Shown here: one piece after another, positions 43,928-58,010 of the stretch
How positions within the stretch are numbered: the first letter of the stretch is position 1
Layout: each line of letters opens with the position of its first letter
NCBI GenBank assembly: GCA_046329655.1
Contig: JAXLUD010000007.1
Location: 52,282 to 116,281 of the forward strand
Direction: 5' to 3'
DNA: 64,000 bases
DNA from: Ferruginibacter sp.
Lineage (GTDB): Bacteria; Bacteroidota; Bacteroidia; Chitinophagales; Chitinophagaceae
Made by a program: the position numbers and the translations under genes
The notes under the pieces: generated by a model
What the model saw: the letters and a program-made list of their open reading frames with translations, nothing else
Database searches by the model: none
What the model was told of the DNA's origin: nothing

Positions 43928-44939
43928 ATGAGTAAACTAACCATCAAACTTTTAGCAAAAGAACTGGGGCTGGCGGTATCCACGGTATCCAAGGCTTTGC
44001 GTGACAGCCACGAGATCAGCGCTGAGACAAAAGCAAAAGTGCTGGAGTATGCGAACAGGCATAATTATGTGCCCAACCCCTATGCCAGCAGTTTGAGAAG
44101 ACAGAAGAGCCGCACCATTGCCGTGGTGCTGCCGGAAGTGGCAGACAGTTTTTTTCACTGGCGATTAACGGTATAGAATCCATCGCCAGGGAAAAGGGTT
44201 ATCATGTGCTTATCTATCTTACCCATGAAAGTGCAGAGCGGGAGGAAGTGATACTGGGCGAATTCAACAGCGGACGTGTGGATGGTATCCTGATCTCTGT
44301 TTCGCAGGGAACACGCGAGGGCAGTCATATCAGGAAGGCGCTGGGCTCAGGTTTGCCCATCGTGTTTTTCGACCGTGTTTGTGATGATGTGGAAACCGCC
44401 AGGGTATCACCGATGATTTTGAAAGCTGTTATATGGCCACCAAGCATTTGATTACTAAAGGATGCAAACGGATCGGTTACCTGTCCTTTTCCAAAAATCT
44501 TTCTATCAATCAAAAAAGGGAAGAAGGTTATTTAAAGGCGCTTGAAGACGGAGGCATCAGTCCTGATAACAGCCTGATGCTGGAATGCGGCAATGATGAT
44601 CATTCGAATTATACCGCTATCCTTAATTTTTTGAAAAGCAAGAGCAGGCCTGATGGTATCATTGCCTCAGTGGAGAAACTGGTGCCACCTGTTTATATCG
44701 CCTGTAATAAATTAAAACTGTCGATACCGGCAGACATCAAGGTAATCAGTTTTACCAATCTCGGCACATCCCCCATCCTCAACCCACCGCTCACCACCAT
44801 TACACAACCTGCATTTGAGATGGGCAGCAAGGCCGCTTCACTCCTTTTCAAGGGAATTGAAAAATCAAATTTTAAACTTGCCGGAGAAACAGTGGTAATA
44901 CCGTCTGCATTGCAGAAAAGGGAATCATCAGATTTTTAG
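43928..44939 (+). pseudogene. LacI family transcriptional regulator, disrupted by two -1 frameshifts
   Basis: The HTH part (43928-44176), middle (44206-44451) and C-terminal part (44433-44939) lie in three frames. Adding one T to the T7 run at about 44150 restores ADSFFSLAINGIESIAREKGYHVLIYLTHES. A second 1-nt gap near 44404 restores ...VITDDFESCYMATKHL. Confidence 0.8.
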
Positions 44940-44945
44940 ATGCGC

Positions 44946-46049
44946 TTATTTCAGTAATTGTTCCAGCTTTCTTTCCAGTGCAGGGCCACGCAGGTTCCGC
45001 CCTACGAGTTTGCCATCGGGATCTACTAAAAAATTCTGCGGGATACTTTGTATCTGGAACTGCTGGGCCACGGCATTACTCCAAAACTGCAGGTCGCTTA
45101 CATGTGTCCAGGTAAGTCCGTCGTCGTGAATGGCTTTTAACCAGTCGTCCTTATGACCGGGCCTGTCGAGCGACACACCCAGCACGGTGAAATTTTTATC
45201 CTTAAACCTGTTATAAGCTGCTACCACATTCGGGTTTTCCATGCGGCAGGGTCCGCACCAGCTGGCCCAAAAATCCACCAGCACATATTTGCCGCGGAAT
45301 GAAGAAAGACTGACTGTTTTGCCGGAAGTATCCGCCTGTGAAAAATCGGGCAGCATATAACCAGTTGCATTTTGTTTGGCCTGCGAAAGCACACCGGCCA
45401 GCCCGGTACTCATGGGAGATGCTTTTACATCGGCCGACAACTGGTTGTACAATGCATCTGCTTTCAGCACATCATCGGTTGACTGGTAATAACGGTAAAT
45501 CGCAAACGGTGTGATGTATGAATTAAGGTGCGTGGCTGCAAAACCATAACTGGCCGCAGCGGCTTTAGTAAATAATACAGAATCGTAGGTGGCGTTTTGT
45601 GCAAATACCGACTGGTAAGGCTGCATCAGCTGTGTGAATGCAGCAAAATCATCGTGTGCAGGCGAACCATTAATATCCAGTTTGTCGGGTGCCGCACTGC
45701 TGCCTTTTACCGTGATGATATTGTTATCAACAAAAATACTGGCATAGGGCTGCATGCGGTTGAACATCAGCAGGCGTATATCAGGCGACTGCATCTTTCC
45801 CTTCAGTTCAAATTTTTCCTTGCTGATGGTGGTTTCCATTTCGGGCATACCACTCTGCGGGTTTACCAGTGACACGGGAGTGCCGTCGGCATAACCTTTC
45901 ATTTCTCCCTTTATCAGGAAACCGTCTGTTGCAGCAACAACCGTTGCCTTTGTTTTTGTTTTAGCCGTTTTTGTACCCGGTTTGGGTTTTACAGTTCTTT
46001 GTGCAAACACGAACCCGGGGAGCAACAGTAACAATAGTATCCGCTTCAT
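44946..46049 (-). CDS. TlpA-family thiol:disulfide oxidoreductase lipoprotein/secreted protein
   Basis: Signal peptide; C-terminal thioredoxin fold with FWASWCGPC active site. Confidence 0.85.
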   Translation of the reverse strand: MKRILLLLLLPGFVFAQRTVKPKPGTKTAKTKTKATVVAATDGFLIKGEMKGYADGTPVSLVNPQSGMPEMETTISKEKFELKGKMQSPDIRLLMFNRMQPYASIFVDNNIITVKGSSAAPDKLDINGSPAHDDFAAFTQLMQPYQSVFAQNATYDSVLFTKAAAASYGFAATHLNSYITPFAIYRYYQSTDDVLKADALYNQLSADVKASPMSTGLAGVLSQAKQNATGYMLPDFSQADTSGKTVSLSSFRGKYVLVDFWASWCGPCRMENPNVVAAYNRFKDKNFTVLGVSLDRPGHKDDWLKAIHDDGLTWTHVSDLQFWSNAVAQQFQIQSIPQNFLVDPDGKLVGRNLRGPALERKLEQLLK

Positions 46050-46093
46050 AGTCTTTATTAATAGTGCAATTTACTCCGTTTTACCTATACGGT

Positions 46094-46918
46094 TTAACGG
46101 ATGATATTTTTTAAGAATTCTTTTGTGGCAGCGGCAATATCCCCGGCATTTTCAAGCACTTTAATATAAGCGCTGCCAATAATAGCACCATTCGTGTACT
46201 GGCTGGCCGCCTCAAAACTTTGCTGATCCCAGATGCCAAATCCCACCAGCACAGGATTTTTTAACTGCATATCATGCAATTTTTTGAAATAGTCTTCCTG
46301 CGCTTCAACTGGCTTGTTTTTCCCTGTAGTGGATGAGGAGGAAACGGCATAGATAAACCCGCTGCCCAGTGCGTCAATTTTACGGATGCGTTCCTCACTG
46401 GTTTCAGGCGTTACTAAAAATATCATATCCAGGCCCTGCGATTCAAACAGGGCTTTATACTGGGTTTCATATTCATACATGGGCAGGTCAGGCAGTATGA
46501 TCCCGTCGATCCCCACTTCTTTTGCTTTGGCACAAAAATTTTCTATCCCGAACTGCATTACAGGATTGAGATAACCCATCAGGATCAATGGTACATGAAT
46601 ACTGCCGCGTATCCCCGACAACTGTTCAAACAGCCGGGTGATCGTCATGCCGTTTTGCAAAGCCACGGCACTGCTGGCCTGTATCACTTCACCATCCGCC
46701 AGCGGGTCGCTGTAAGGCATGCCGATTTCGATGATATCCGCTCCACCTTCCTGTAATGCCTGCAACACAGCAACGGTTGAATCCGGTTTGGGATACCCTG
46801 CTGTACAATATATGTTGAGTACTTTTTTTGACTGGCTGCTGAACAAATCCTGTAAACGGCTATGCCCCCTGAATCCCCCTGCAGGGGGACTTCCGAAGCT
46901 TTCAGTATGTTGATCCAT
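46094..46918 (-). CDS. trpA: tryptophan synthase alpha chain (N-terminal 19 codons encoded by insertion-derived sequence)
   Basis: IYCTAGYP, IEIGMPYSDPLADGEVIQ and GFGI motifs. The only in-frame ATG is at 46918, 3 nt after the DUF559 stop. Confidence 0.9.
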   Translation of the reverse strand: MDQHTESFGSPPAGGFRGHSRLQDLFSSQSKKVLNIYCTAGYPKPDSTVAVLQALQEGGADIIEIGMPYSDPLADGEVIQASSAVALQNGMTITRLFEQLSGIRGSIHVPLILMGYLNPVMQFGIENFCAKAKEVGIDGIILPDLPMYEYETQYKALFESQGLDMIFLVTPETSEERIRKIDALGSGFIYAVSSSSTTGKNKPVEAQEDYFKKLHDMQLKNPVLVGFGIWDQQSFEAASQYTNGAIIGSAYIKVLENAGDIAAATKEFLKNIIR

Positions 46919-47394
46919 CTTTTATTTATTTGACAAGCTTTCGCTTAATTTAATAATTGTTGTTGTAATGGTTTTAGTTACATCCGGCAGATTACACCTT
47001 ACCTCTTCATTGGTAAAACGCAACACTTCTATTCCAAAGTCATGGAGATCATTCTCCCGTATTGCATCCTGCGCTTTTATATCCTGTCCTAAATGAATCC
47101 CTCCGTCAATTTCAATAACCAGCCTTAATTCATGACAATAAAAATCCGCAATGTACATCCATATGGGATGCTGCCTGCGAAATTTAAAACCCATTTTATT
47201 TGCTGATAAACAGTTCCACACAATTCTTTCTTCATGGGTCATGTTTTTCCGCAGGTAAGCCGCATTTTCAAAAATGGGTTTTATGGCAACAAAGTGCATA
47301 TCCTTTTTCATAGAGCAAGTCATTATGCACGAACAACAAAAGAGCTGTAAACCAGCAGGCTCTCTAAAGTCCCCCCACAGGGGGATTTAGGGGG
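46865..47394 (-). mobile_element. DUF559 cassette bounded by 28-bp inverted repeats
   Basis: IR-L at 46865-46892 (ccccctgaatccccctgcagggggactt) matches the reverse complement of IR-R at 47367-47394 (ccccctaaatccccctgtggggggactt) at 25 of 28 positions. The cassette sits exactly between the trpB stop and the trpA body. Confidence 0.5.
46922..47323 (-). CDS. DUF559 (Vsr-like endonuclease fold) domain protein
   Basis: LRKNMTHEERIVWNCL..FKFRRQHPI..YIADFYC...LVIEIDGGIH pattern of DUF559 proteins. Confidence 0.8.
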   Translation of the reverse strand: MTCSMKKDMHFVAIKPIFENAAYLRKNMTHEERIVWNCLSANKMGFKFRRQHPIWMYIADFYCHELRLVIEIDGGIHLGQDIKAQDAIRENDLHDFGIEVLRFTNEEVRCNLPDVTKTITTTIIKLSESLSNK

Positions 47395-48570
47395 TTACAT
47401 CTGCTGCATATACGTTGCCAGGTCCTTATCCCCCCTTCCGCTGAGGCATACCACCACGACATCATTTTTATTGAAGTTGATCATCTTGAGTGCATGCAAT
47501 GCATGTGCACTTTCCAATGCAGGAATGATCCCTTCGAGTTTGCAGAGTTCAAATGCCGCATTCAATGCTTTGTTATCAGTGGCGCTCATAAAAATGCCGC
47601 GGCCGCTCTCGAACAAATGTGCATGCAGCGGACCAATACCGGGATAATCCAGTCCGGCCGAAATACTGTGCGGCTCCACCACCTGCCCGTCTGCCGTTTG
47701 CATTACAATACTTTTACTGCCATGCAAAATACCCGGTGTGCCCAGTTGCGTGGTGGCAGCACTTAAACCGCTGTTGATGCCATGGCCTGCCGCTTCCACT
47801 GCAACCAGCTTCACCTCTTCCTGGTCTAAAAAATGATAAAATGCCCCGGCGGCATTACTGCCACCACCTACACACGCCAGTACATAATTTGGATTTTCGC
47901 TGCCGGTTTTTTCCAATAACTGTTTTTTAATTTCTTCACTGATCACACTCTGGAACCTCGCCACCATATCAGGATAAGGATGCGGCCCCACCACGCTGCC
48001 GATGATATAATGTGTGTCCACCGGGTTGTTGATCCAGTCGCGGATGGCTTCATTGGTGGCATCCTTTAATGTTTTACTGCCGCTGGTAGCCGGCACAACG
48101 GTGGCTCCCAGCATTTTCATTCTGGCCACATTCGGCGCCTGGCGTTCGATATCTTTTTCGCCCATGTACACAATGCACTCCAGCCCTTTCAGTGCACAAA
48201 CGGTGGCGGTGGCCACGCCATGCTGACCGGCACCTGTTTCGGCAATGATTCTTTTTTTACCCAGTCGCTGTGCCAGTAAAATCTGGCCGATCGTGTTGTT
48301 TATTTTGTGTGCACCGGTATGACAAAGGTCTTCCCGCTTTAAATAGATTTGTGCTTTATACCTTACACTCAGCCGCTCTGCCAGGAACAACGGTGTCGGT
48401 CTTCCCACATAATCCGTCAGCAATTGCTGAAACTCTTTCTGGAAATCCTCCGCATAGATGATCTGCAAATAATTCTCCTGCAGCTCCTGCACATTCGGGT
48501 GGAGCATCTCGGGGATATAGGCCCCGCCGAAATTTCCGTAATAGCCTTGTTCGTTAACTGTGTAATTCAT
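47395..48570 (-). CDS. trpB: tryptophan synthase beta chain
   Basis: From ATG 48570: [21 protein letters not shown]; PLP-lysine motif HTGAHKINN; GGGSNAAG. Confidence 0.95.
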
Positions 48571-48697
48571 TTTACTATTTTTTACTTGCCTGCCGAAGCA
48601 ATGCGAAGGCATGGCAGCAAGCATTTGCAACTTTGTTCAGTATCGTTGTGTCACTAACTTAAACCTTTATCTTTTGTTCATCTTTTATCTTAGCATA

Positions 48698-48723
48698 GTT
48701 GCTGGTCAGGCGACCAGTAAAGG
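48698..48723. repeat. GC hairpin H1 (ctggtc-aggc-gaccag), inverted copy of H2
   Basis: gttgctggtcaggcgaccagtaaagg compares with the reverse complement of 49665-49690, gttgttggtcaggcgaccaacaacgg (about 22/26 identical by eye). The two loops are in opposite orientation. Confidence 0.6.
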
Positions 48724-48740
48724 CGGAATTGAACCGTTTT

Positions 48741-49244
48741 TTACTCTTCTAAATAAACATAATCCTCCCCATTTTCAAACCCTTTCAAATATTGACTCAT
48801 AATATCCTCTTTTGTAAGAAACTTATCTTCCATTAGCTCCCATGTAAGCCTAATTAGACTTAGATACAATGTTGTAAGAGATGGATTCAGGCAAAAGATC
48901 GAACAATAACGTGTTTTAGTGTTATACTCAAATGAATAAGTAATTTCAGTGCTCTTTCGAAATAAATCAATAACTCCGTCTATAAAAAACCCATCTGTTA
49001 TTAAGGGTGGATATTCGTATTTTAACCAAGATTTGAATTCATGAAAAAACAAATACCTTCCATTTTCAAATGCTTTTAGCCTCTCATAAAAACAAATTAA
49101 ATAATCAAGACAAAATTTAGTTTTCGATTTAGAGGTTTTAAAGTTCTTATAATAACAAGTAATATCGTTTGTTTTTGGAACATCGGTTCTTTGAAAACTT
49201 ATTTCAAATAAAAACTTACTACTATTCACTATTTTTTTTTGCAT
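48741..49244 (-). CDS. hypothetical protein, orphan (AT-rich cassette gene 2)
   Basis: 167 aa, ATG start, same strand as the trp operon, about 27% G+C (hand count 49021-49080). No recognisable motifs. Confidence 0.55.
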   Translation of the reverse strand: MQKKIVNSSKFLFEISFQRTDVPKTNDITCYYKNFKTSKSKTKFCLDYLICFYERLKAFENGRYLFFHEFKSWLKYEYPPLITDGFFIDGVIDLFRKSTEITYSFEYNTKTRYCSIFCLNPSLTTLYLSLIRLTWELMEDKFLTKEDIMSQYLKGFENGEDYVYLEE

Positions 49245-49314
49245 TTAACAAAATTTCGATGCACAGAATACTTACATATAAAACAGAACCCTTTTAAATG
49301 ATGAAAATCCTCAA

Positions 49315-49563
49315 TTATCTTTCAAGTTTATCTATCTCAGCTCTAATAGAATCGTAAAGCAAAGGAACGGTTTCGTAAAGTAAGTTCTTTACCCATTTAC
49401 CCTTATCATCTTTATATAAATTAAATGTTTCTTGCATTCCATAGCCGGCACCTAAAACAACTTTATACAACTTGCCATTAACCTTTATTCCATTTATCTC
49501 TATTTGATCATCTATAATATCATAATATCCGTTTCGATTTTCCTTTTCTAAATTAATATCCAT
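49315..49563 (-). CDS. hypothetical small protein, orphan (AT-rich cassette gene 1)
   Basis: 82 aa, ATG start, 70 nt upstream of the 167-aa ORF on the same strand. No recognisable motifs. Confidence 0.5.
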   Translation of the reverse strand: MDINLEKENRNGYYDIIDDQIEINGIKVNGKLYKVVLGAGYGMQETFNLYKDDKGKWVKNLLYETVPLLYDSIRAEIDKLER

Positions 49564-49666
49564 TGTTTATAATTTTTGAATTACCAAAAAACTTACACCA
49601 CTGTCGCCTCTATAGGACTTAACAAAACAACTTGGTCATTTTATTATCAAGATGCCATCCTTAGCC

Positions 49667-49690
49667 GTTGTTGGTCGCCTGACCAACAAC
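49667..49690. repeat. GC hairpin H2 (gttgttggtc-gcct-gaccaacaac)
   Basis: Perfect 10-bp stem; inverted counterpart of H1 on the other side of the two orphan ORFs. Confidence 0.6.
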
Positions 49691-49832
49691 ATTATACATC
49701 ACAAACTGTCACCCCTACAGAGCTTACTAAAACAACCTGTTCATTTTTCTACCAACATGCCGCTCTGCTGGAGTCAAATACAATACCACTTCAATCTCCT
49801 AAACAATCTGCACTGTCATCCCCTCCCTCATC

Positions 49833-49859
49833 AGTTCCCCCTTTAGGGGGCGGAGGGGG
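49833..49859. repeat. third copy of the C5/G5 hairpin motif
   Basis: agttccccctttagggggcggaggggg has the same architecture as IR-R (aagtccccccacagggggatttaggggg) and directly abuts the trpF' stop. Confidence 0.6.
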
Positions 49860-49861
49860 CC

Positions 49862-50488
49862 TCACTTCATCCCCTGCTTAAACAGCAGCACCTGTGCCAT
49901 ATCTTTCACGCCCGGTTCTTTTTCAAATTTGCTGTTTACATCCACTCCATAATAGTCAGGATGTTTAAACCGCTTTAGTTTTTCAATATCCCCCACTCCA
50001 ATTCCCCCACTCAGGAAAAAGGGCTTTTCAATTTTGGCCTTGCTCAGCACTTTCCAGTCAAACTGCTTGCCGGTGCCACCGCTTTCGCCATTGCTTTTTG
50101 TATCAAACAAATAATAATCGCATACGGCATCATAATCGGCCACCAGCGCATCAATATCTTTGGTATCCGCATCAATGGGGAATACCTTGATCACTTCCAC
50201 TTCACTACTGAGGTCTTCGCACATTTCCGGACTCTCATCGCCGTGCAGCTGCACCACATCCAGCCCGTATTCATCAATGGCATCCAGCACATCGATCATT
50301 TCGGGATCTTTGAATACGCCTACTTTCTTCAAATCAAAATCCGCATTTTTCACAGCATCCTTATCCAGTTTGTCACCCACATAACGCGGAGAGTCTTTGA
50401 CAAAGATCAGCCCTGCAAATTCAATATTCAGTCCGTCTAATTGCTGCAGCTGTTTCAGCTGGGTAATGCCGCATACTTTAATGTTCAT
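49862..50488 (-). CDS. trpF: phosphoribosylanthranilate isomerase, paralogue 2
   Basis: MNIKVCGIT..., VQLHGDESP, LFDTK...GGTGKQFDW, FFLSGGIG: the full TrpF signature. Confidence 0.85.
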   Translation of the reverse strand: MNIKVCGITQLKQLQQLDGLNIEFAGLIFVKDSPRYVGDKLDKDAVKNADFDLKKVGVFKDPEMIDVLDAIDEYGLDVVQLHGDESPEMCEDLSSEVEVIKVFPIDADTKDIDALVADYDAVCDYYLFDTKSNGESGGTGKQFDWKVLSKAKIEKPFFLSGGIGVGDIEKLKRFKHPDYYGVDVNSKFEKEPGVKDMAQVLLFKQGMK

Positions 50489-50504
50489 TGTTTCTTATTT
50501 TAGG

Positions 50505-50544
50505 TCACTAATTACACGAATTCCACCAATTACACTAATTGCTG
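50505..50544. repeat. nonanucleotide-period array (TNCACNAAT x4)
   Basis: TCACTAAT|TACACGAAT|TCCACCAAT|TACACTAAT, spanning the trpF stop and the trpF-trpF' spacer. Confidence 0.7.
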
Positions 50545-51159
50545 TATGAATCCTTTTATTTTTTCCATATCCTTTATTCCTGTTGTTACTTCAAACCTGC
50601 TGCAAAGGTCTATCGCAAACAGGGCTTTTGCTTCCGGTCTTTGTGCAAATGCATTCAATGCGGCTGCATCGTTCTCATCGATCATGCCGCTTAAAAAATA
50701 CGGCTTGCCCACCTGTACCCCGTGCAGTTTTTCCAGGTTCAGTTTTTTGCCCGTACCGCCATACCCAACGCCTTCCGTATCAAACATGAACATATCGCAG
50801 TAACTCATGTATTCCTGTATGCGGTAACCGATATTATCCGTTTCGCTGAAGCGGAATGCCTTTACCACCGAAATATAGTCTGCAATTTTTTCGCAGTATT
50901 TGGGGGTCTCATCGCCATGGAGCTGCACCATATGCAGCCGGCATTCATCCACCATGTGCAGCACTTCATCCACGGAAGCATTTACAAACACGCCCACCTT
51001 GTTGATACTGTTTTCCTTTTTGATCTGGTTGGTGGTCATATGCCGTAATACATACCGCGGCGATTTTGGATAAAAAATAAATCCGGCAAAAGAAGCGCCG
51101 GCTGCAGGAAGCTCCTTCAGCTGCTCTTCATGCGTGATGCCGCATACTTTTACTCTCAT
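50530..51159 (-). CDS. trpF: phosphoribosylanthranilate isomerase, paralogue 1 (divergent phosphate-binding loop)
   Basis: MRVKVCGIT..., VQLHGDETP, MFDTE..YGGTGKKLN, but SGMIDEND in place of SGGIG. ATGA overlap with trpC. Confidence 0.85.
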   Translation of the reverse strand: MRVKVCGITHEEQLKELPAAGASFAGFIFYPKSPRYVLRHMTTNQIKKENSINKVGVFVNASVDEVLHMVDECRLHMVQLHGDETPKYCEKIADYISVVKAFRFSETDNIGYRIQEYMSYCDMFMFDTEGVGYGGTGKKLNLEKLHGVQVGKPYFLSGMIDENDAAALNAFAQRPEAKALFAIDLCSRFEVTTGIKDMEKIKGFIQQLV

Positions 51160-51947
51160 GTAACTTTTGCTTTAAGTTGTTGAACAAATGCAGCAAAAGC
51201 AATCGCCGGGTCAGGCGCCTTCATAAAGTTTTCCCCGATCAGAAAACCTTTGAAACCTGCCCGTTTAAAAGTACAAATAGTATCTATATCGCTGATACCG
51301 CTCTCCGCAATTTTTACTTTATCAGCGGGTATTTTTTTTCCCAATTCCAGCGACCTGTTAATATCCACCGTAAAAGTTTTCAGGTCGCGGTTATTAATGC
51401 CCACAATGGCTGTTTCATCACAAATATGCCCCAGTTCCGTTTGGTTGTGTATTTCCAGCAGTACTTCCAGTTGCAGGCTTTTTGCAAACTTTGCCAATTC
51501 CTGTACCCGCTGCGGGGTTAAGCAGGCTGCAATCAGCAATATCACATCAGCGCCCATGGCCCGGGCTTCTGTTATCTGGTATTCATCTATGATAAAATCC
51601 TTGCGCAAAATGGGTATCGCATTTACCCTTGCCTTTTCAAGATCAGCAGAGATGCCGCCAAAAAACATTTCATCAGTCAGCACCGACAGGCAACTGGCCC
51701 CATTGGCCGCATAGGCGGTTGTAACTTCCACCACATCCGCAGTGCCATTGATCGTTCCCTTTGATGGCGACTTTCTTTTAAACTCTGCTATGATGCCGGT
51801 TTTGTTTTCGTCGAGCAGGAATTGTTTGAGCGAAAATACCGGGCGATTGTAAAAGGCAGACTGCTGTAATTGTGTAACCGGGGCAGCAGCCTTTCTTTCG
51901 GCCACTTCAATCTTTTTTTGTGCAATAATTTTATCCAGTATATTCAT
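51156..51947 (-). CDS. trpC: indole-3-glycerol phosphate synthase
   Basis: IIAEFKRKSPSKG, LSVLTD..FF.G, ILRKDFIIDEYQI motifs. Confidence 0.95.
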   Translation of the reverse strand: MNILDKIIAQKKIEVAERKAAAPVTQLQQSAFYNRPVFSLKQFLLDENKTGIIAEFKRKSPSKGTINGTADVVEVTTAYAANGASCLSVLTDEMFFGGISADLEKARVNAIPILRKDFIIDEYQITEARAMGADVILLIAACLTPQRVQELAKFAKSLQLEVLLEIHNQTELGHICDETAIVGINNRDLKTFTVDINRSLELGKKIPADKVKIAESGISDIDTICTFKRAGFKGFLIGENFMKAPDPAIAFAAFVQQLKAKVT

Positions 51948-51949
51948 GG

Positions 51950-52939
51950 TTACCGGCCGGTGATTTTTAAAAGTGAATTGTATGCTTTACCGCTTTCAAG
52001 GCTTTCCACAGCTGCACGGTAACATTCGTCATAATGATTGTATTTTCCTGTGCATTGAAGCGCCATGGCCGCATTGCTGAGCACTACGGCATTCTGCGCC
52101 CAGCTGCCTTCGCCTTTGATGATTTTCAAAAACAATTTAGCCGCTTCTTCAGCCGTGTTGCCGCCATAAATATCTGCGGCGCTTACGGTGCGTTTGCCCA
52201 GTTGTTCGGCACTGTATATTTTTTCACCGGCCGCTGTGATCACTTTTGTATCACCCGTAAGCGATATCTCATCATAACCATCGAGCGAATGGATAATAGT
52301 GAAATTATTACCCGTAGGCTGCAGCAGGTAATTATAAATGCGTGCCATTTCCAGGCTGTACACACCTACCAGCTGGTGTTTGGGAAATGCGGGGTTCACC
52401 ATAGGACCGAGCATATTAAAAAAGGTACGCACGCCCAGGTTTTTCCGGATTGGCCCCACCGCTTTCAATGCAGGATGAAACACCGGCGCATGCAGGAAAC
52501 AGATATTGGCATCATCCAGTTCTTTTTGCAATGTGCCCGCATCATTTTTAAAAGTATAGCCCAGCTGCTCCATCACATTGCTGCTGCCGCTTACGGAAGT
52601 GGCACCATAATTACCATGCTTGGCCACTTTATGCCCAGCGCCGGCCACGATAAAACAACTGAGTGTGGAAATATTGAAAGTGTTCTTGCCATCGCCGCCG
52701 GTACCCACGATATCGATCACATCGCCATCTTCCAGGTTTACACGCACACAGAGTTCCAGTAACGCATCCCGGAATCCCTGCAGTTCTTCAATGGTGATGC
52801 TGCGCATTAAGAATACCGTGATAAAAGCCGCCACTTCACTTTCATTGTACTGGTTTTTTGAAATATTTACCAGCACTTCTTTGGCCTGCGCACGCGTGAG
52901 TGTTTTGTATTCGAAGAGATAGTTGAGTATTTTTTTCAT
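51950..52939 (-). CDS. trpD: anthranilate phosphoribosyltransferase
   Basis: DIVGTGGDGKNTFNIST and KHGN....S.SGS motifs; 329 aa. Confidence 0.95.
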   Translation of the reverse strand: MKKILNYLFEYKTLTRAQAKEVLVNISKNQYNESEVAAFITVFLMRSITIEELQGFRDALLELCVRVNLEDGDVIDIVGTGGDGKNTFNISTLSCFIVAGAGHKVAKHGNYGATSVSGSSNVMEQLGYTFKNDAGTLQKELDDANICFLHAPVFHPALKAVGPIRKNLGVRTFFNMLGPMVNPAFPKHQLVGVYSLEMARIYNYLLQPTGNNFTIIHSLDGYDEISLTGDTKVITAAGEKIYSAEQLGKRTVSAADIYGGNTAEEAAKLFLKIIKGEGSWAQNAVVLSNAAMALQCTGKYNHYDECYRAAVESLESGKAYNSLLKITGR

Positions 52940-52944
52940 TTTTT

Positions 52945-53062
52945 TATAACACGAATTTTACGATTTATGGCACTAATTCTACGAATTGCACTAATTACAC
53001 GAATTATTTACACATGAACTGATACTTAGAACTTACTACTTATAACTTATAACTCATCACTT
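52945..53062. repeat. 9-nt array (NNCACGAAT family) followed by 7-nt array (ANNACTT family)
   Basis: AACACGAAT|TTTACGATT|..GCACTAAT|TCTACGAAT|TGCACTAAT|TACACGAAT, then ATGAACT|GATACTT|AGAACTT|ACTACTT|ATAACTT|ATAACTC|ATCACTT. ATAACTT is the reverse complement of the AAGTTAT words at 15287-15343. Confidence 0.8.
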
Positions 53063-53630
53063 ACACCTCCAGCCAATTCCTCAAAATCTGTTCCCCCATT
53101 GGCGTCAACACACTTTCCGGGTGAAACTGCACACCCTGAATATCGTATTTCCTGTGCTGCATGGCCATGATAAAACCGTTTTCATCGACGGCAGTCACTT
53201 CCAGCTCAGCAGGAAAATATTCATTACTTACGATCCAGCTGTGGTAGCGGCCCACTTCTATATTTCGCGGAAGCCCTTTAAACAATTTGCAATTGTCAAT
53301 TGTCAATTGACAATTAGTGGCCACGCCATGATACACTTTGCTTAAGTTGGTAAGCCTGGCGCCAAATGCTTCGCCGATTGCCTGGTGACCCAAACAAACA
53401 CCGAGTATGGATTTGGTGGCTGCATACTCCTTTATCAGCGGCAACAGCAATCCTGCTTCTTCTGGAATACCGGGGCCGGGAGATAAAATGATCTTATCAA
53501 AGTCCTTCACTTTTTCCAGCGCTATTTCATCATTGCGGTATACATCTACTTTCTGGTGCAGTATCTTTTCCACGAGGTGCACCAGGTTATAAGTGAAGGA
53601 GTCGTAATTATCGAAGACGAGTATTTTCAT
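53061..53630 (-). CDS. trpG: anthranilate synthase component II (glutamine amidotransferase)
   Basis: GPGIP, GVCLGHQAI (catalytic Cys), GVQFHPES triad region; 189 aa. Confidence 0.95.
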   Translation of the reverse strand: MKILVFDNYDSFTYNLVHLVEKILHQKVDVYRNDEIALEKVKDFDKIILSPGPGIPEEAGLLLPLIKEYAATKSILGVCLGHQAIGEAFGARLTNLSKVYHGVATNCQLTIDNCKLFKGLPRNIEVGRYHSWIVSNEYFPAELEVTAVDENGFIMAMQHRKYDIQGVQFHPESVLTPMGEQILRNWLEV

Positions 53631-53713
53631 GTTGTTAATTGGTTCATGGTTGATGGTTCATGGTAAATACACTGTTCTGCTATAAGCCATGAACTATTAG
53701 CGATGAACCATTT
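53631..53713. repeat. heptamer arrays in inverted arrangement (CATGGTT / CCATGAA family)
   Basis: ATTGGTT|CATGGTT|GATGGTT|CATGGTA ... CCATGAA|CTATTAG|CGATGAA|CCATTTC fill the trpE-trpG spacer. Confidence 0.8.
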
Positions 53714-55132
53714 CTAAATGGTTTCCGCCAAAACAATGGCCTGCTTCAGTGCATTTAATTTATTATTTACTTCCTGTAATTCACTTTCCGGATTACTGGC
53801 CACCACCACACCGGCACCAGCCTGGTATATCAGTGTATTGTTCCTGCTTAAAAAAGTTCGTATCATGATGGCATGATTTACTGTGCCGTCAAAACCCACG
53901 AAGCCAATGGTACCGCCATAATAACTCCTTGCTGTCGGTTCATTACTGTCGATCAGCTGCATGGCTTTAAATTTTGGTGCGCCGCTCAGTGTACCGGCAG
54001 GAAAAGTGGTGGCGATCAGTTTGAAAGGGTTGCTGCCAGCCTGCACCAGACCTGTTACTTCACTTACCAGGTGTATCACGTGGCTGTAATAATTGATCTT
54101 TTTGTATTGTGATACTTCCACCTGGCTGCACATGCGGCTCAGATCGTTCCTCGCAAGGTCTACCAGCATTACATGTTCTGCATTTTCCTTTTCATCGGCT
54201 TCCAGTTTTACAGCAAGCGCCTTGTCTGTTTCATCATCTCCCGTGCGCCGGAATGTTCCTGCGATGGGATGCACCACGGCCTTGCCATTTTGCACGATCA
54301 GCTGGCTTTCGGGCGACGAACCCATCAGTTTATAATCACCATAATCAAAATAGAATAAATACGGGGAAGGGTTGATACTTCGAAGTGCACGGTAAACATT
54401 GAATTCATCCCCGGTGAACTGCTGTTCAAATTTGCGGCTCAGCACGATCTGGAACACATCCCCCCTCAGGCAGCTGGCAATCCCTCTTTTAACCATATCG
54501 ATATAGGCTTCATTGGTAAGATTGCTGCTTTCTGTTCCTTTCACTGCAAAAGGAAAAGTGGGCACATCTTTGCTGCGGATCAGGCTTTCCACCACGACCA
54601 GTTCAGATTCCACACCTGCAACCTGGTTTTCACAGATGAACAACTCATCTTTAAAGTGATTGATCACGATGATATACTGGTAAAGACGGTAGCGCATCAG
54701 AGGTATCTCATTATTCGCAGGCTGTTTATCAACGTTCAGTTTTACCGTTTCAAAAAACTGCACGGCATCATAAGTGCTGTAACCAAACAATCCCTGTGCA
54801 ACATTAACCGGCTTTGGAACGGCACTGCTGATTTCAAAACGCTGCATAAAATCCCACAGCTGTTGCGGCACTGCAGCCGTATCGCTGATGATGATCTTTT
54901 CGGGTGTTTGCCCGGGCAGTTTAAATTCTATCTCGGCCTTGTTCCTGATCTCAATACCGGCAATGGCATTGATCCCGATAAAAGAATAACTGTTCTCTCC
55001 CGCATGAAAATCGGTGCTCTCCAGCAAAATGGTATCCCTGAAACGGTCACGCAGCCGCAGGTAAATGCCCACAGGAGTGTACACATCTGCCAGCATTTTT
55101 TTAAACGAGGTTTGTATTTGTATTTTTTTCAT
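53714..55132 (-). CDS. trpE: anthranilate synthase component I
   Basis: From ATG 55132: MKKIQIQTSFKKMLADVYTPVGIYLRLRD; LSGAPKFKAMQLI and YGGTIGF motifs. Confidence 0.95.
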   Translation of the reverse strand: MKKIQIQTSFKKMLADVYTPVGIYLRLRDRFRDTILLESTDFHAGENSYSFIGINAIAGIEIRNKAEIEFKLPGQTPEKIIISDTAAVPQQLWDFMQRFEISSAVPKPVNVAQGLFGYSTYDAVQFFETVKLNVDKQPANNEIPLMRYRLYQYIIVINHFKDELFICENQVAGVESELVVVESLIRSKDVPTFPFAVKGTESSNLTNEAYIDMVKRGIASCLRGDVFQIVLSRKFEQQFTGDEFNVYRALRSINPSPYLFYFDYGDYKLMGSSPESQLIVQNGKAVVHPIAGTFRRTGDDETDKALAVKLEADEKENAEHVMLVDLARNDLSRMCSQVEVSQYKKINYYSHVIHLVSEVTGLVQAGSNPFKLIATTFPAGTLSGAPKFKAMQLIDSNEPTARSYYGGTIGFVGFDGTVNHAIMIRTFLSRNNTLIYQAGAGVVVASNPESELQEVNNKLNALKQAIVLAETI

Positions 55133-55150
55133 TTTTAGAACAGTAATAAA

Positions 55151-55177
55151 TAAAAACCCCGGCATCCTGTGCCGGGG
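55151..55177 (-). terminator. trp attenuator terminator
   Basis: The - strand reads ccccggca-cagga-tgccgggg followed by ttttta. It lies between the leader peptide stop and the trpE ATG. Confidence 0.85.
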
Positions 55178-55218
55178 TTTGAATATGTTTCATGACATAA
55201 TACAACAGTGCGGCACAA

Positions 55219-55272
55219 TCAGCTTGCTGAATGCCACCACCAGTTGTTGTTATGTGTATAGTTATTTTTCAT
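55219..55272 (-). CDS. trp operon leader peptide MKNNYTHNNNWWWHSAS
   Basis: Hand translation of the - strand from ATG 55272 to TGA 55219 gives three consecutive TGG codons at 55234-55242. Confidence 0.8.
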   Translation of the reverse strand: MKNNYTHNNNWWWHSAS

Positions 55273-55338
55273 TTCCATTGCAAATATGTGGTAGATTTAG
55301 AAAATAAAAAAATTTTTATCCCATAAATCTTGTCGACA

Positions 55339-55632
55339 ATGGAAATTAAACACCGGAAAGATGGCAGCAAGGGTGCCTTTTACATTGAGGAAAACAGCCG
55401 GCTTCTGGGCGAAATGACCTACAGCATGGCCGGGCCCGGACTCATGATCATTGATCACACAGAAGTGGATGATGCGCTGAAAGGACAAAATGCGGGCCTG
55501 CAGCTTTTGAACAAGGCGGCTGATTTTGCAAGGACCAACCAGCTGAAAATAATTCCGCTTTGCCCTTTTGCAAACGCCATGTTTAAAAGAAAGCCCGAAG
55601 TATTTGGCGACCTGCTGCATAAAAGCGAATAG
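55339..55632 (+). CDS. GNAT-like N-acetyltransferase (YjdJ-type small acetyltransferase)
   Basis: 97 aa from ATG 55339: FYIEENS..LGEMTY......MIIDHTEV...L.GQ..G..L........AR....KIIPLCPFA. Confidence 0.7.
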   Translation: MEIKHRKDGSKGAFYIEENSRLLGEMTYSMAGPGLMIIDHTEVDDALKGQNAGLQLLNKAADFARTNQLKIIPLCPFANAMFKRKPEVFGDLLHKSE

Positions 55633-55672
55633 CCGGGTGTTTAATCATTATCTTTATTAAAAACTATATTGT

Positions 55673-56305
55673 ATGGTGCTGGCAATTTTCGGTGCCACCG
55701 GGCAGGTGGGCAGGCAACTGGTGAAACAGGCTTTATTCGGCGGTCACCAGGTAAAGGCTTTTGGACGTAATGTGTTTACAGAATTTAACAAGGATGAAAA
55801 AAACCTTGAATTGGTAAAAGGCGGCGTGTTTGACGAGAAAGATGTATATCATACCATCATGGGATGCGACGCCGTGCTTTCGGCGCTGGGCGGCAGTTTC
55901 GACGGAACAGATAAAAGCCGTTCGCTCGGCATGAAAAATATTGTTCAGCAAATGCAAAAGGCCGGCGTGAAGCGCATTGTGGCACTGGGAGGCATGGGCA
56001 TTTTAAATTATGATGAGAACACTTTGCTGATAGATACAGAAGACTATCCCAAAGAATATATCCCTGTGGGCAATGAACACCGCAAGGCATATGAATATTT
56101 AAACAACAGCGGGCTCGACTGGACCTTTGTATGCAGCCCCGACATCATCAATGCCGATGCAACGGGCGAATTTATTACCAGCGCCAACTATCCGCCCCAG
56201 CCCAATAAGTTTAAGATCAATGCAGGCGACCTGGCCTTGTTTATGCTGGGTGAAGTGAGTAAGAATAATTATGTAAAGGAACGTGTGGGGATTAGTATGC
56301 AATAG
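55673..56305 (+). CDS. NAD(P)H-binding protein (atypical SDR / NmrA-BVR-B-like)
   Basis: N-terminal IFGATGQVGRQLV Rossmann motif; 210 aa. Confidence 0.8.
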   Translation: MVLAIFGATGQVGRQLVKQALFGGHQVKAFGRNVFTEFNKDEKNLELVKGGVFDEKDVYHTIMGCDAVLSALGGSFDGTDKSRSLGMKNIVQQMQKAGVKRIVALGGMGILNYDENTLLIDTEDYPKEYIPVGNEHRKAYEYLNNSGLDWTFVCSPDIINADATGEFITSANYPPQPNKFKINAGDLALFMLGEVSKNNYVKERVGISMQ

Positions 56306-56830
56306 CCCAATCTTTTAATTTCCATCTTTAGCAACAGTTAACAGCGGAGCATTAAAAATAATGCTCCGCATGAGATGCTTTACATCCGGCTTATTGCTTC
56401 ACCATTGTAAAAGTATATTTATCTCCGGGCTGGTTTACACCGGTGGCATAAAACATCAGTGGCTGGAGAAATATGTAAAAAACAGCGGAAAATAGTTTAA
56501 CCTGCCTGCCCGGTAAGGGAAGGTTTTGTTCCAAACATTTGTTCATTGCCCGGCATCGTTGTGTCACTCACTTTGAGGACATGACGCTGCTGGGCTTTTA
56601 TTTTTCTGTGTTGCCGGTACCCCCTCTGCCATTTTCACCATCACTTCTATCACACAAGGAATTTAGTACTGCCATCAAGGCATTTCATAAACCACCATCC
56701 CAAAAACGCTTGCAAATCCCCGCTTTACTGTTTATATTTCTGAAACTATTGAACAGGCGGTCACCTTCCTTATTATTCTCAGCCCTGTTTGCAATTATAT
56801 ATTCAACCTTAACACCCAAAACAACCAGGC

Positions 56831-57910
56831 ATGAAAAAACTGCTGCTCCCATTAACCTTAACCTGCATGTTATTTTTCACAACAACATCATACAGCCAGC
56901 CCGGCTACAATGAAGAAATAAAGCAGGCCTGCATCAAACTCTTCAATTCATTCAATCCCTTGCAAAAACGTTCGGCCGTGCTCAGTTTTAACGACACTGC
57001 ACGGATCAAATGGAATAACCTGCCTGTTGGTTTAAGGGCCAGGGCCGGCACCAGCCTGGGTAATATGACATACGAGCAGCGCAAACTCGTGCACCGTATT
57101 CTTTCCGCTTCACTCAGCTCGCAGGGATATTTAAAAGCCACCGGCATCATGCACCTCGATAACCTGCTGAACATGTATTACGACAGCCTGTTCTATAAAA
57201 AAGAAATCAGTGATACCACCCACCAGTTTGTAATGTCTTTACTATGGTCGCACAAAAATTATTTCTTTGCTTTTTTTGGCCAGCCATCAGACAGTATATG
57301 GGGGTATAAACTGGAAGGCCATCATTTGTCTGTCAATTTCACATTTGTAAAAGACAAACTTTCGGTAACACCCTTCTTTATCGGCACCGACCCCGCTGAA
57401 TACCAGGACGCAGATTATGCAGGCTGGCGTGTGCTGGGACAAGAAGAAGACCTGGGCATCAAACTCATCCATTCACTTTCCGCGGCGCAGCAAAAGCAGG
57501 CGGTGATGAGCGGCGATGTGCCACAAGACATCATCACGGCAGCCGAAAGCGGCAAACGCCTCGTGAACGACTGGGGTATTACCGGCGCAGCAATGAACCC
57601 GCAGCAAAAAGCCCTGCTACAATATATCATCCGTGAATTTGTATTTAATATGGAATACGATAAAGCCCTGACTGAATATGAAAAAATACTCAAGGCCGGT
57701 GTTGACAAAATTTATTTCGGGTGGATCGGCTCCATGGAGGAAACCAAGCCGCATTATTATGTGCTCAACGGCCCTACTTTTTTAATCGAGTTCGATAACA
57801 ATGGCGGTCCCCGCAACAGCGCCAATCATATTCATGCCATCTGGAGGGAAAAGGGCAATGAATACGGGGAAGATGTACTGAAGAAGCACTATTTAACTGA
57901 GCCGCATTAG
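56831..57910 (+). CDS. DUF3500 domain-containing secreted protein
   Basis: Signal peptide; LEGHHLSVNFTF and IHAIWRE blocks as recalled for DUF3500. Confidence 0.65.
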   Translation: MKKLLLPLTLTCMLFFTTTSYSQPGYNEEIKQACIKLFNSFNPLQKRSAVLSFNDTARIKWNNLPVGLRARAGTSLGNMTYEQRKLVHRILSASLSSQGYLKATGIMHLDNLLNMYYDSLFYKKEISDTTHQFVMSLLWSHKNYFFAFFGQPSDSIWGYKLEGHHLSVNFTFVKDKLSVTPFFIGTDPAEYQDADYAGWRVLGQEEDLGIKLIHSLSAAQQKQAVMSGDVPQDIITAAESGKRLVNDWGITGAAMNPQQKALLQYIIREFVFNMEYDKALTEYEKILKAGVDKIYFGWIGSMEETKPHYYVLNGPTFLIEFDNNGGPRNSANHIHAIWREKGNEYGEDVLKKHYLTEPH

Positions 57911-58010
57911 TACTGATGGTTTTGGTTCATGAACGGTGGATTATTGAAAGACCTGCCTGCCTAAACAATGAACCATGAACCATCAACCAACCATCAAAAT
58001 GATTTCAGTA
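57911..58010. repeat. inverted heptamer arrays (GGTTCAT / ATGAACC family)
   Basis: tactgat|ggttttg|gttcatg|aacggtg ... aatgaac|catgaac|catcaac|caaccat. The two halves are approximately reverse-complementary. Confidence 0.8.

Follow-up and report, generated by a model that had tools for sequence, protein, structure and literature searches.

A single-gene DUF559 cassette between inverted hairpin units at the trpB-trpA junction of Ferruginibacter, possibly a homing-type nuclease element

The window analysed here is a stretch of 64,000 nt from contig JAXLUD010000007.1 of Ferruginibacter sp., in which all genes of the trp region lie on the minus strand and the trp operon is complete. Between trpB and trpA stands a 530-bp segment that is a discrete cassette: a single gene of the DUF559 family enclosed by two inverted 28-nt units, each of the design C5, TAAAT, C5-N4-G5 hairpin, ACTT. 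Sequence comparison indicates that hairpin-bounded DUF559 cassettes form a large class, found here mainly in Chitinophagaceae and in metagenome contigs, and that this cassette is one of them. In the window's lineage the cassette is an old, vertically inherited and selectively maintained resident and no recent arrival; we consider the chances about even that it is, or descends from, a selfish site-specific homing-type nuclease element that spares the expression of the operon in which it resides.

The two units (hereafter also arms) are complementary at 25 of 28 positions (89%) and stand 474 nt apart, as had been proposed in an earlier reading of the window made from its sequence alone (the sequence-only reading). 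Three further details of that reading were borne out: the upstream unit begins at 47394, the base right after the trpB stop codon (47395-47397); the downstream unit lies within the first 19 codons of trpA, where it encodes residues 10-19; and the trpA ATG at 46918 follows the DUF559 stop after 3 nt. The sense strand runs from the trpB TAA through CCCCCTAAATCCCCCTGTGGGGGGACTT and DUF559 to TAA-AAG-ATG GAT CAA CAT ACT GAA AGC TTC GGA, continues with AGT CCC CCT GCA GGG GGA TTC AGG GGG and then enters CAT AGC CGT TTA CAG. Each arm is a hairpin by itself (TCCCCC-N4-GGGGGA), so the arms are also direct repeats of one another; true inverted symmetry is shown by the outer C-run and G-run, by the ACTT/AAGT inner flanks and by loops that are reverse-complementary in most relatives. 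The 21-nt arm core AAGTCCCCCNNNNGGGGGATT, with up to 3 mismatches allowed, occurs in the window at just the two arm sites; 0.11 matches are expected by chance, and none of 100 shuffles reaches 4.

The relatives with which the cassette was compared are metagenome-assembled sequences, their loci are given L-numbers, and all trees are neighbour-joining trees without support values. Assemblies of Ferruginibacter and other Chitinophagaceae contain DUF559 homologues with 76, 75, 70 and 51-54% identity; each of them lies between trpB and trpA, and each of these loci has the arms. The arm pairs of 13 loci have 0-3 mismatches over 25-31 positions; the arm sequence CCCCCTAAATCCCCCTGAAGGGGGACTT differs by one base at most where the flanking genes have synonymous divergence (dS) of ~0.5 to >1.5. 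Lineage-specific changes are mirrored in both arms, and the clade-2 variant CCCCTCTAAATCTCCCCTAAAGGGGAGACTT (CCCCTC / CTCCCC) is altered in both, with 31/31 positions complementary in L010. The loops of paired arms are reverse complements in most loci (TGAA/TTCA, TAAA/TTTA), which independent hairpins would not require. Mirrored variants, reverse-complementary loops and conservation together argue that the pairing of the arms and their sequence are both maintained, and the same three features, the conservation extending beyond synonymous-site divergence, rule out a chance inverted repeat or two independent terminator hairpins.

In each of the 13 loci with arms read in register, the C-run unit precedes DUF559 and the G-run unit follows it; the gene has the orientation of its neighbours wherever these two are co-directional. 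TrpB runs into the upstream unit at L004:2918-2935 and in L009, L010, L022, L098 and L101. In the latter five the TAA of CCCCCTAAAT in the unit is the trpB stop; in L004 translation continues to a TGA in the hairpin loop. The short C-terminal extensions of TrpB that result read PL, AP, SP and PPKSP. By eye, no target-site duplication is present beside the inverted repeats in nine loci. The cassette does not fit an insertion sequence or miniature inverted-repeat transposable element: inverted repeats are present, but these nine loci have no target-site duplication and there is no transposase-family hit.

The DUF559 ORF has PF04480 as its only Pfam hit (105.9 bits against a cut-off of 20.6, E = 1.3e-30, residues 19-122); the Vsr family model (PF03852) gave no match. 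NCBIfam PRK09767 ('DUF559 domain-containing protein') scored 78.5 bits, below its equivalog cut-off of 218, and PDB entry 3hrl was matched with E = 8e-14 by sequence and 6e-30 by sequence profile. An AlphaFold2 model built with 54 homologues (predicted local distance difference test 86, predicted template-modelling score 0.81) was compared with solved structures by Foldseek, in which 3hrl came first (template-modelling (TM) score 0.88), then 3r3p, the catalytic domain of I-Bth0305I (E = 2.6e-4, TM 0.71); further matches were PvuRts1I/AbaSI, RAP-type mitoribosomal proteins and Vsr (1vsr, E = 0.07). The protein is therefore predicted to have the restriction-endonuclease-like fold of the solved DUF559 and Vsr structures. 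D56, E67 and D69 are invariant among the 54 homologues and H73 nearly so (at least 90%), as expected of an acidic/His core that is putatively catalytic; the core RRQHPIWMYIADFYCHELKLVIE(I/V)DG hardly varies in either trp clade, each locus having one or two conservative substitutions. Public gene calls start the protein at a second ATG (47311), which gives 129 aa (P0001, 100% identical), and an exact look-up of the 133-aa form gave no public record. The names 'HisF' and 'cyclase' given to homologues by JGI were judged annotation artefacts because the two homologues so named whose contigs were fetched (P0003 and P0048) lie between trpB and trpA and all listed homologues carry solely DUF559-type Pfam domains. 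PADLOC returned weak partial hits alone, to a methyl-directed restriction enzyme and to DpdF, and we therefore do not file the cassette as a defence system.

By the Nei-Gojobori method the ratio of nonsynonymous to synonymous divergence (dN/dS) is 0.04-0.14 for DUF559, 0.05-0.13 for trpA and 0.02-0.07 for trpB. The dS of DUF559 is comparable to that of the flanking trpB and trpA in each measurable pair (L004 and L005, 0.42 versus 0.53 and 0.91; window and L004, 1.93 versus 1.53 and 1.94). Matching dS and low dN/dS point to a gene that was inherited with the operon and kept functional, not to a decaying insert.

Occupancy of the trpB-trpA junction was surveyed by a TrpA scan with one genome per species, which yielded 80 loci. 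The sequence-only reading had taken the cassette for a self-contained insertion, and the relatives agree with this: cassette-free, occupied and replaced junctions all exist among them. Many Ferruginibacter and other Chitinophagaceae have a cassette-free junction with a trpB-trpA gap of 12-60 nt or an overlap (TAATG), and the native TrpA N-terminus in these is M(N/K/S)R(I/L)xx(L/I)F...LN(V/I)YCTAGYP. In other relatives the junction holds a GNAT gene, a lipoprotein-like ORF of 118-124 aa, DUF559 with that ORF, DUF559 with both, or DUF559 alone. In a tree of TrpB and TrpA the genomes with a cassette form two clades that stand apart, and genomes without one are nested inside these clades as well as between the two. 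L021 and L022 have 92.6% identity up to the trpB stop and 97.7% from ~30 nt into the next ORF; between these breakpoints they carry unrelated DUF559 genes with different arms, which indicates that one cassette replaced another at one site. Presence and absence of a nuclease ORF at one fixed site among relatives, as expected of a free-standing homing gene, is found here as empty, occupied and replaced junctions. In L039 a solo upstream unit follows the trpB stop, with a stem that is different but still self-complementary. The GNAT acetyltransferase (~155 aa) and/or the lipoprotein-like ORF (no Pfam hit) recur at this junction without flanking hairpin units (L019, L020, L024, L026, L028, L030, L036, L039, L041, L043, L044, L047 and L049), and in L024, L026 and L036 short tandem repeats (TAATGAG, CCATTGA) lie past the GNAT gene.

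The trpA frame is open from an ATG 2-3 nt after, or overlapping, the DUF559 stop in the window and in L004, L005, L010, L098 and L101, and in all six it reads through the downstream arm. According to the sequence-only reading the cassette provides trpA with its start and a linker. Comparison with relatives supports this; it does not stand as a fixed property of the cassette, as sister lineages keep their own trpA ATG (in L007, L009, L022 and L023 the cassette is followed by the lipoprotein-like ORF). The accompanying claim that trpA has no alternative start was upheld in L004, L005, L010 and L098, in which no in-frame ATG, GTG or TTG other than that of the cassette precedes the conserved TrpA core, and fails in the window itself, which has an in-frame TTG. 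In clade 2 (L010, L098, L101) the cassette itself encodes, ahead of the arm, a native-like TrpA motif, MKSRISGVF, comparable to MKRIKKIF of the cassette-free sister L045, and the arm takes the place of a short linker ahead of VLNVYCTAGYP. The window's leader MDQHTESF resembles a shortened form of this cassette-borne motif (L098, MEHTQKSRISRLF) and appears homologous to it. Past the arm, the window retains a complete native TrpA N-terminus minus its Met (CAT AGC CGT TTA CAG versus ATG AGC CGG TTA CAA in L020), so that the native Met codon was probably lost in this lineage. The open frame from the cassette ATG and the Met-less native N-terminus together suggest that start donation is real, but is the outcome of a later fusion in the window's lineage and no constant feature of the cassette. 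The TrpA N-terminus expected from the ATG at 46918 is MDQHTESFGSPPAGG...; the ORF matches Pfam Trp_syntA over residues 28-260, and gene calls give 274 aa likewise in L001-L005.

The wider class was surveyed by scanning metagenomes with other DUF559 types as seeds: of the 80 loci obtained, 64 had enough flank to be tested, and 26 of these 64 have flanking inverted repeats well above shuffled controls. The design is shared: an outer C-rich run, a short spacer (often TAAAT), a hairpin of C-stem, loop and G-stem, ACTT, the DUF559 gene and then the mirror image, with stems that vary among cassettes (CCCCC, CTCCCC, CCCC, CCCTCTCC). The cassettes fill almost exactly the gaps between adjacent, usually co-directional genes (junctions in Table 1). 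In the DUF559 tree the clades are specific to sites, and arm type goes with clade; in L132 the window's unit (ACCCCCTAAATCCCCCTTGAGGGGGACTT) surrounds a DUF559 gene of a different clade. The repeats are thus associated with other DUF559 copies, as the same unit in L132 and as arms of the same design at grpE-dnaJ and elsewhere. Tandem arrays of units lie beside DUF559 in L152 (five units), L170 (two), L130 (six) and L104 (five); the period is 27 nt in L152:920-1052 and 111 nt in L130:1628-2419, and the units of L104:2104-3494 are scattered. Long GC-rich palindromes in all the DNA fetched lie no more than 250 nt from DUF559 in 29 of 60 cases, a figure that is indicative only, given a DUF559-centred sample.

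A literature search found no paper on these cassettes or on the arm sequence, in line with the sequence-only reading, which knew of no such element having been characterised. The nearest published hint is a table entry that gives 'DUF559 domain-containing protein' an odds ratio of 14 for enrichment among inversion targets predicted from inverted repeats, the DUF559 cases not having been validated there (PMC9881135).

Units also occur without the gene. The exact unit CCCCCTAAATCCCCC-N4-GGGGGACTT is present as single copies in nine viral contigs (IMG/VR, L183-L191), mostly 0-5 nt past a stop codon and co-oriented with the upstream ORF; L190 has two copies in the same orientation 1.7 kb apart. 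The solo unit of L186 lies between ORFs of 352 and 117 aa, apparent structural genes, and that of L187 likewise between apparent structural genes. A symmetric full palindrome (C-run, hairpin, G-run) that might be read as a 'footprint' was not found in the viral contigs, nor was an empty site matching the solo unit of L186 when searched for. The window holds three units, all within the trp operon, and no second cassette copy; the third unit lies directly past a trpF stop, a similar solo unit is at the same position in L098, and the ~600 kb of trp-region loci of relatives contain one solo of the window's unit type. The viral and trpF solo copies suggest that the 28-nt unit exists in its own right. 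In the window the trpF unit is nested in an outer stem (CCCCTCC...GGGAGGGG). Phage GenBank records searched by tblastn gave only 4 weak DUF559 hits, and the viral contigs contained no close relatives of the window's DUF559; a broader profile found 17 distant DUF559 genes in them, about half at contig ends with the downstream flank missing. Two of these distant genes (L192 and L205), in viral contigs of a different, GC-rich composition, have strong flanking inverted repeats of 29 nt and 50 nt.

When the sense RNA was folded from the trpB end to the trpA start, the arms paired in both the minimum-free-energy and the centroid structures (z = -4.2), and the predicted inter-arm helix extends to ~38 bp and encloses the DUF559 ORF. 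Rfam gave no family at the arms or cassette (44000-58000, E up to 1). A single metatranscriptome contig of 151 nt, running from trpB across the upstream unit to just ahead of the DUF559 start, is a weak indication that trpB and this unit are co-transcribed. At several junctions that are independent of one another the arms stand tight against stop and start codons. Taken with the stability of the predicted helix, this suggests that pairing of the units in the mRNA may keep translation of the flanking genes coupled and so make the insert less costly. The window solves coupling differently, its trpA starting 3 nt past the DUF559 stop.

We favour a homing-type origin because the DUF559 clades are site-specific, because of the fold relationship and because the cassettes are placed between conserved coding sequences. 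Each DUF559 lineage would be tied to one junction; its nuclease would cut or nick the cassette-free junction or unit, and recombinational repair would then copy the cassette in. The layout spares the operon: the upstream unit abuts or supplies the stop of the gene before it, and the downstream end abuts or carries the start of the gene after it. Paired in the mRNA, the units can form a helix of 28-38 bp, with the nuclease ORF looped out and the upstream stop brought beside the downstream start. In the window's lineage, under long vertical inheritance, trpA, without an ATG of its own, would start at 46918, coupled to the DUF559 stop, and would read the downstream unit as a linker. Nuclease activity with its target, spread by homing and a part played by the RNA helix are all inferred. 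The sequence-only reading had likewise suggested a mobile or homing-type element: the allelic replacement in L021/L022 and the presence of the window's unit at another junction (L132) show turnover, a recent arrival here does not hold, and movement itself is deduced.

Several points weigh against a homing origin. We know of no need for terminal inverted repeats in homing endonuclease genes, and homing alone therefore does not explain the conservation of the arms; solo units and tandem arrays are left unexplained in the same way. The nine viral solo-unit loci, as fetched, have no DUF559 and no partner arm, which homing does not predict. The origin proposed presupposes a nuclease activity and a target for the DUF559 protein. 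Within the trp clade the DUF559 tree and dS agree with those of trpB and trpA and give no sign of recent horizontal spread, and the patchy presence of the cassette could be explained by losses alone. Contigs of four DNA metagenome runs over 45900-48800 had no joint that skips or inverts the cassette, rare variants being invisible in contigs. A helix that bridges stop to start would have no role in the cassettes between convergent genes (L149, L170, L175). The protein also departs from its closest homing counterparts: it is a single domain of 129 aa without the extra DNA-binding domain of I-Bth0305I, and its core is ExDxxxH (E-I-D-G-G-I-H), without the EDxHD of that family.

Among known systems the closest are free-standing homing genes, above all the Vsr-like (EDxHD) family with I-Bth0305I and the 'fractured gene' endonucleases (PMC3239194; PMC2677866). 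In both these and the cassettes, a small nuclease gene of the Vsr/PD-(D/E)XK kind lies at a fixed site between conserved coding sequences, lineages are site-specific, presence is patchy, host genes are expressed and RNA hairpins stand near the nuclease gene; in metagenomes, free-standing genes of this type with upstream RNA hairpins lie between gene halves (PMC2677866). I-Bth0305I, a homodimer with its strongest specificity for a 14-bp pseudopalindrome centred on the cut (PMC3239194), has a catalytic domain that is the best characterised structural match of the cassette protein's model; the model has two short N-terminal helices, and 3r3p gave no hit at sequence level at E up to 10. Lacking EDxHD and the extra DNA-binding domain, the cassette protein resembles the EDxHD family without being a member. 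Unlike those genes, the cassette involves no intron, intein or split gene, it alone is bounded by conserved inverted units of 25-31 nt, it is chromosomal in Chitinophagaceae and not in phage, and it shows long vertical residence with purifying selection where homing genes pass through a cycle of invasion, decay and loss.

Islands that target tRNA genes carry a replacement gene end, and the cassette does something alike: in clade 2 it carries the ATG with MKSRISGVF, and in the window it supplies the trpA ATG and leader. Unlike such islands it has no integrase and no att-type direct repeats, and it measures only ~0.5 kb. Two DUF559 proteins with some characterisation share the Pfam family and fold of the cassette protein. 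The entry for Neisseria NGO0050 (PDB 3hrl), which covers the structure only, makes no mention of a hairpin-bounded cassette, and for Caulobacter VsrA no junction cassette is described and mismatch repair is the proposed role (PMC12907096).

The main rival of a homing origin is a system akin to repetitive extragenic palindromic (REP) units and their REP-associated tyrosine transposases (RAYTs), in which the 28-nt unit would be autonomous and the DUF559 nuclease its domesticated, vertically inherited single-copy partner, binding and cutting the hairpin units and spreading or maintaining them in trans. RAYTs are Y1/HUH enzymes whose genes are flanked by inverted palindromic REP units of ~30 nt. 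The resemblance is close: inverted short palindromic units with conserved non-palindromic flanks surround a gene, unit type follows protein clade, inheritance is vertical under purifying selection, and units also occur in tandem beside DUF559 (L152, L170, L130, L104) and alone, in the nine viral contigs, mostly 0-5 nt past a stop, and after the trpF stop in the window and L098. Against this, the enzyme is a Vsr-fold nuclease and no Y1/HUH transposase, the junctions run exactly from stop to start inside operons, and the binding of DUF559 lineages to particular junctions is atypical of RAYTs. REP units are dispersed in hundreds per genome; in the sequence covered here the cassette unit numbers three in the window, all in the trp operon, and a single solo in the relatives' trp-region loci. 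On balance we regard a REP/RAYT-like system as rather unlikely.

The remaining explanations are less likely. DUF559 might be an ordinary host gene, a Vsr-type repair or housekeeping nuclease in the trp operon whose arms tune or insulate expression, with nothing mobile now. Long vertical residence, a dN/dS like that of housekeeping genes and the strongly predicted inter-arm helix would fit, and there is a precedent in Caulobacter VsrA, a DUF559 protein that has a genetic link to DNA damage at unmethylated palindromic sites and a proposed role in very-short-patch repair (PMC12907096). Such a gene would not account for the recurrence of the design at unrelated junctions with different DUF559 lineages, for presence/absence polymorphism and allelic replacement at one site, or for conservation of the arm sequence beyond pairing. 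In addition, no cytosine-5 methyltransferase gene is adjacent in the window, where the neighbours are trp genes and a thioredoxin-like gene, though an unlinked copy is possible. We judge a host gene of this kind improbable.

An RNA-level role, in which DUF559 would be an RNA endonuclease like RAP/FASTK proteins and process the polycistronic transcript at the flanking hairpins, is very improbable. The RAP-type mitoribosomal matches in Foldseek (9i05_Xl, E = 8e-3; 6z1p_AS, TM 0.67, query-normalised) and the position of the arms against stop and start codons would suit it, and the Vsr-like protein FASTKD4 is said to act on mRNA; but cleavage at the downstream arm in the window would fall inside the trpA coding sequence, and the better structural matches are DNA nucleases (3hrl, 3r3p, PvuRts1I). 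Least probable of all is an invertible switch in which the inverted repeats drive programmed inversion of the DUF559 segment: inverted repeats do surround the gene, and DUF559 is enriched among inversion predictions (PMC9881135), but the 13 loci read in register have one orientation throughout, inversion of the window's segment by hand leaves trpA with no in-frame start, no recombinase gene was seen beside the cassette and the contigs of the four metagenome runs have no strand-changing joints.

Positions of the features named above, and the other junctions that hold cassettes, are collected in Table 1. In the window trpF is present as an adjacent pair of phosphoribosylanthranilate isomerase (PRAI) genes (208 and 209 aa), a tandem also found in L004 and L009. 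Assignment of trpB rests on a Pfam PALP match of ORF 47395-48630, a tblastn match of 100% to the 391-aa product and 82-93% identity with TrpB of the relatives.

Table 1. Features of the trp region of the window and junctions occupied by hairpin-bounded DUF559 cassettes
Feature	Position or locus	Strand	Remarks
trpE	55165-53714	minus	trp operon
trpG	53630-53061	minus	trp operon
trpD	52939-51950	minus	trp operon
trpC	51947-51156	minus	trp operon
trpF (first)	51159-50530	minus	PRAI, 209 aa
trpF (second)	50488-49862	minus	PRAI, 208 aa
Solo arm-like unit	49815..49860	minus	directly past trpF stop: GCCCCCTCCG-CCCCC-TAAA-GGGGG-AACT...GGGAGGGG
trpB CDS	47395..48570	minus	ATG 48570, stop 47395-47397; 391-aa product
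Upstream (5') 28-nt unit	47367..47394	minus	sense strand CCCCCTAAATCCCCCTGTGGGGGGACTT; in all orthologous cassettes
Leader, upstream unit to DUF559 start	47324..47366	minus	first ~10 nt prolong the predicted inter-arm helix
DUF559 gene, predicted Vsr-fold PD-(D/E)XK nuclease	46922..47323	minus	133 aa; stop 46922-46924
trpA start and cassette-borne leader MDQHTESF	46893..46918	minus	ATG 46916-46918; 3-nt spacer from DUF559 stop
Downstream (3') 28-nt unit	46865..46892	minus	sense strand AAGTCCCCCTGCAGGGGGATTCAGGGGG; read in frame as TrpA residues 10-19 (GSPPAGGFRG)
CAT AGC, probable place of ancestral trpA start	46859..46864	minus	by sequence comparison with L020
In-frame TTG	46844..46846	minus	L of QDLF; the window's sole alternative start-type codon before the conserved TrpA core
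trpA CDS as called	46094..46918	minus	274 aa including 19-residue cassette-derived extension
grpE-dnaJ junction	L178		0 nt from stop, 0 nt from start
GMC oxidoreductase-gluconate-2-dehydrogenase subunit 3 junction	L132, L167		
APH-type kinase-nucleotidyltransferase junction	L142		
Epimerase-UDP-GlcNAc 2-epimerase junction	L138		
trpB-trpA junction	L106, L112, L118		second DUF559/arm lineage
trpF-trpB junction	L045, L121		third DUF559 lineage
Between convergent genes	L149, L170, L175		

A second hairpin-bracketed insertion, without DUF559, lies between trpF and trpB (window 48697-49690). It has minus-strand ORFs at 49315-49563 (82 aa) and 48741-49244 (167 aa), neither with a Pfam, NCBIfam or PADLOC hit, and 28% G+C against 45% for the window. 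It is bracketed by inverted palindromes, GTTGTTGGTCAGGCGACCAACAAC at 49667-49690 and TTACTGGTCGCCTGACCAGCAACT at 48697-48720, with reverse-complementary loops, and the palindrome is present as a single copy upstream of trpB in L020 and L005. At the trpF-trpB site the insert is absent from L004 and L009; L005 carries a putAbiC gene there, and L007 two other ORFs. Closer to trpB, a leader of ~100 nt upstream of the gene (window 48585-48660; GTGAGTGACACAACGAT..TGAACA..TTACAAATGCTTG) is kept across divergent relatives and in the window closes with a 37-nt hairpin (48585-48621) just ahead of the trpB ATG; Rfam gave no match to it, and it may be an internal regulatory element of the trp operon.

Hardly any biology has been assigned to the very large DUF559 family, one branch of which is now tied to a recurring genomic design that places a nuclease gene, enclosed by cognate hairpin units, with nucleotide precision between co-transcribed genes, including the essential pairs trpB-trpA and grpE-dnaJ. 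At the level of annotation, the cassette accounts for the extended N-terminus of annotated TrpA and the extended C-terminus of TrpB, and the JGI names 'HisF' and 'cyclase' misfit small proteins with a single DUF559 domain and a place between trpB and trpA. If mobile, the cassette would be a selfish gene that lives cheaply in operons without an intron or intein, donating stops, starts and linkers, with an RNA helix that perhaps keeps the neighbours coupled. It is possible, though we hold this tentatively and with some doubt, that it represents a distinct kind of mobile element, in which a Vsr-fold nuclease with no transposase or recombinase domain acts on its own hairpin units and so moves itself and solo units to sites just past stop codons, the paired units forming in the mRNA a non-spliced 'structural intron' that loops out the nuclease ORF and restores stop-to-start coupling. 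As a candidate nuclease for the recognition of short GC-rich palindromic units, the protein bears on the origin of REP-like repeats in bacteria without RAYTs.

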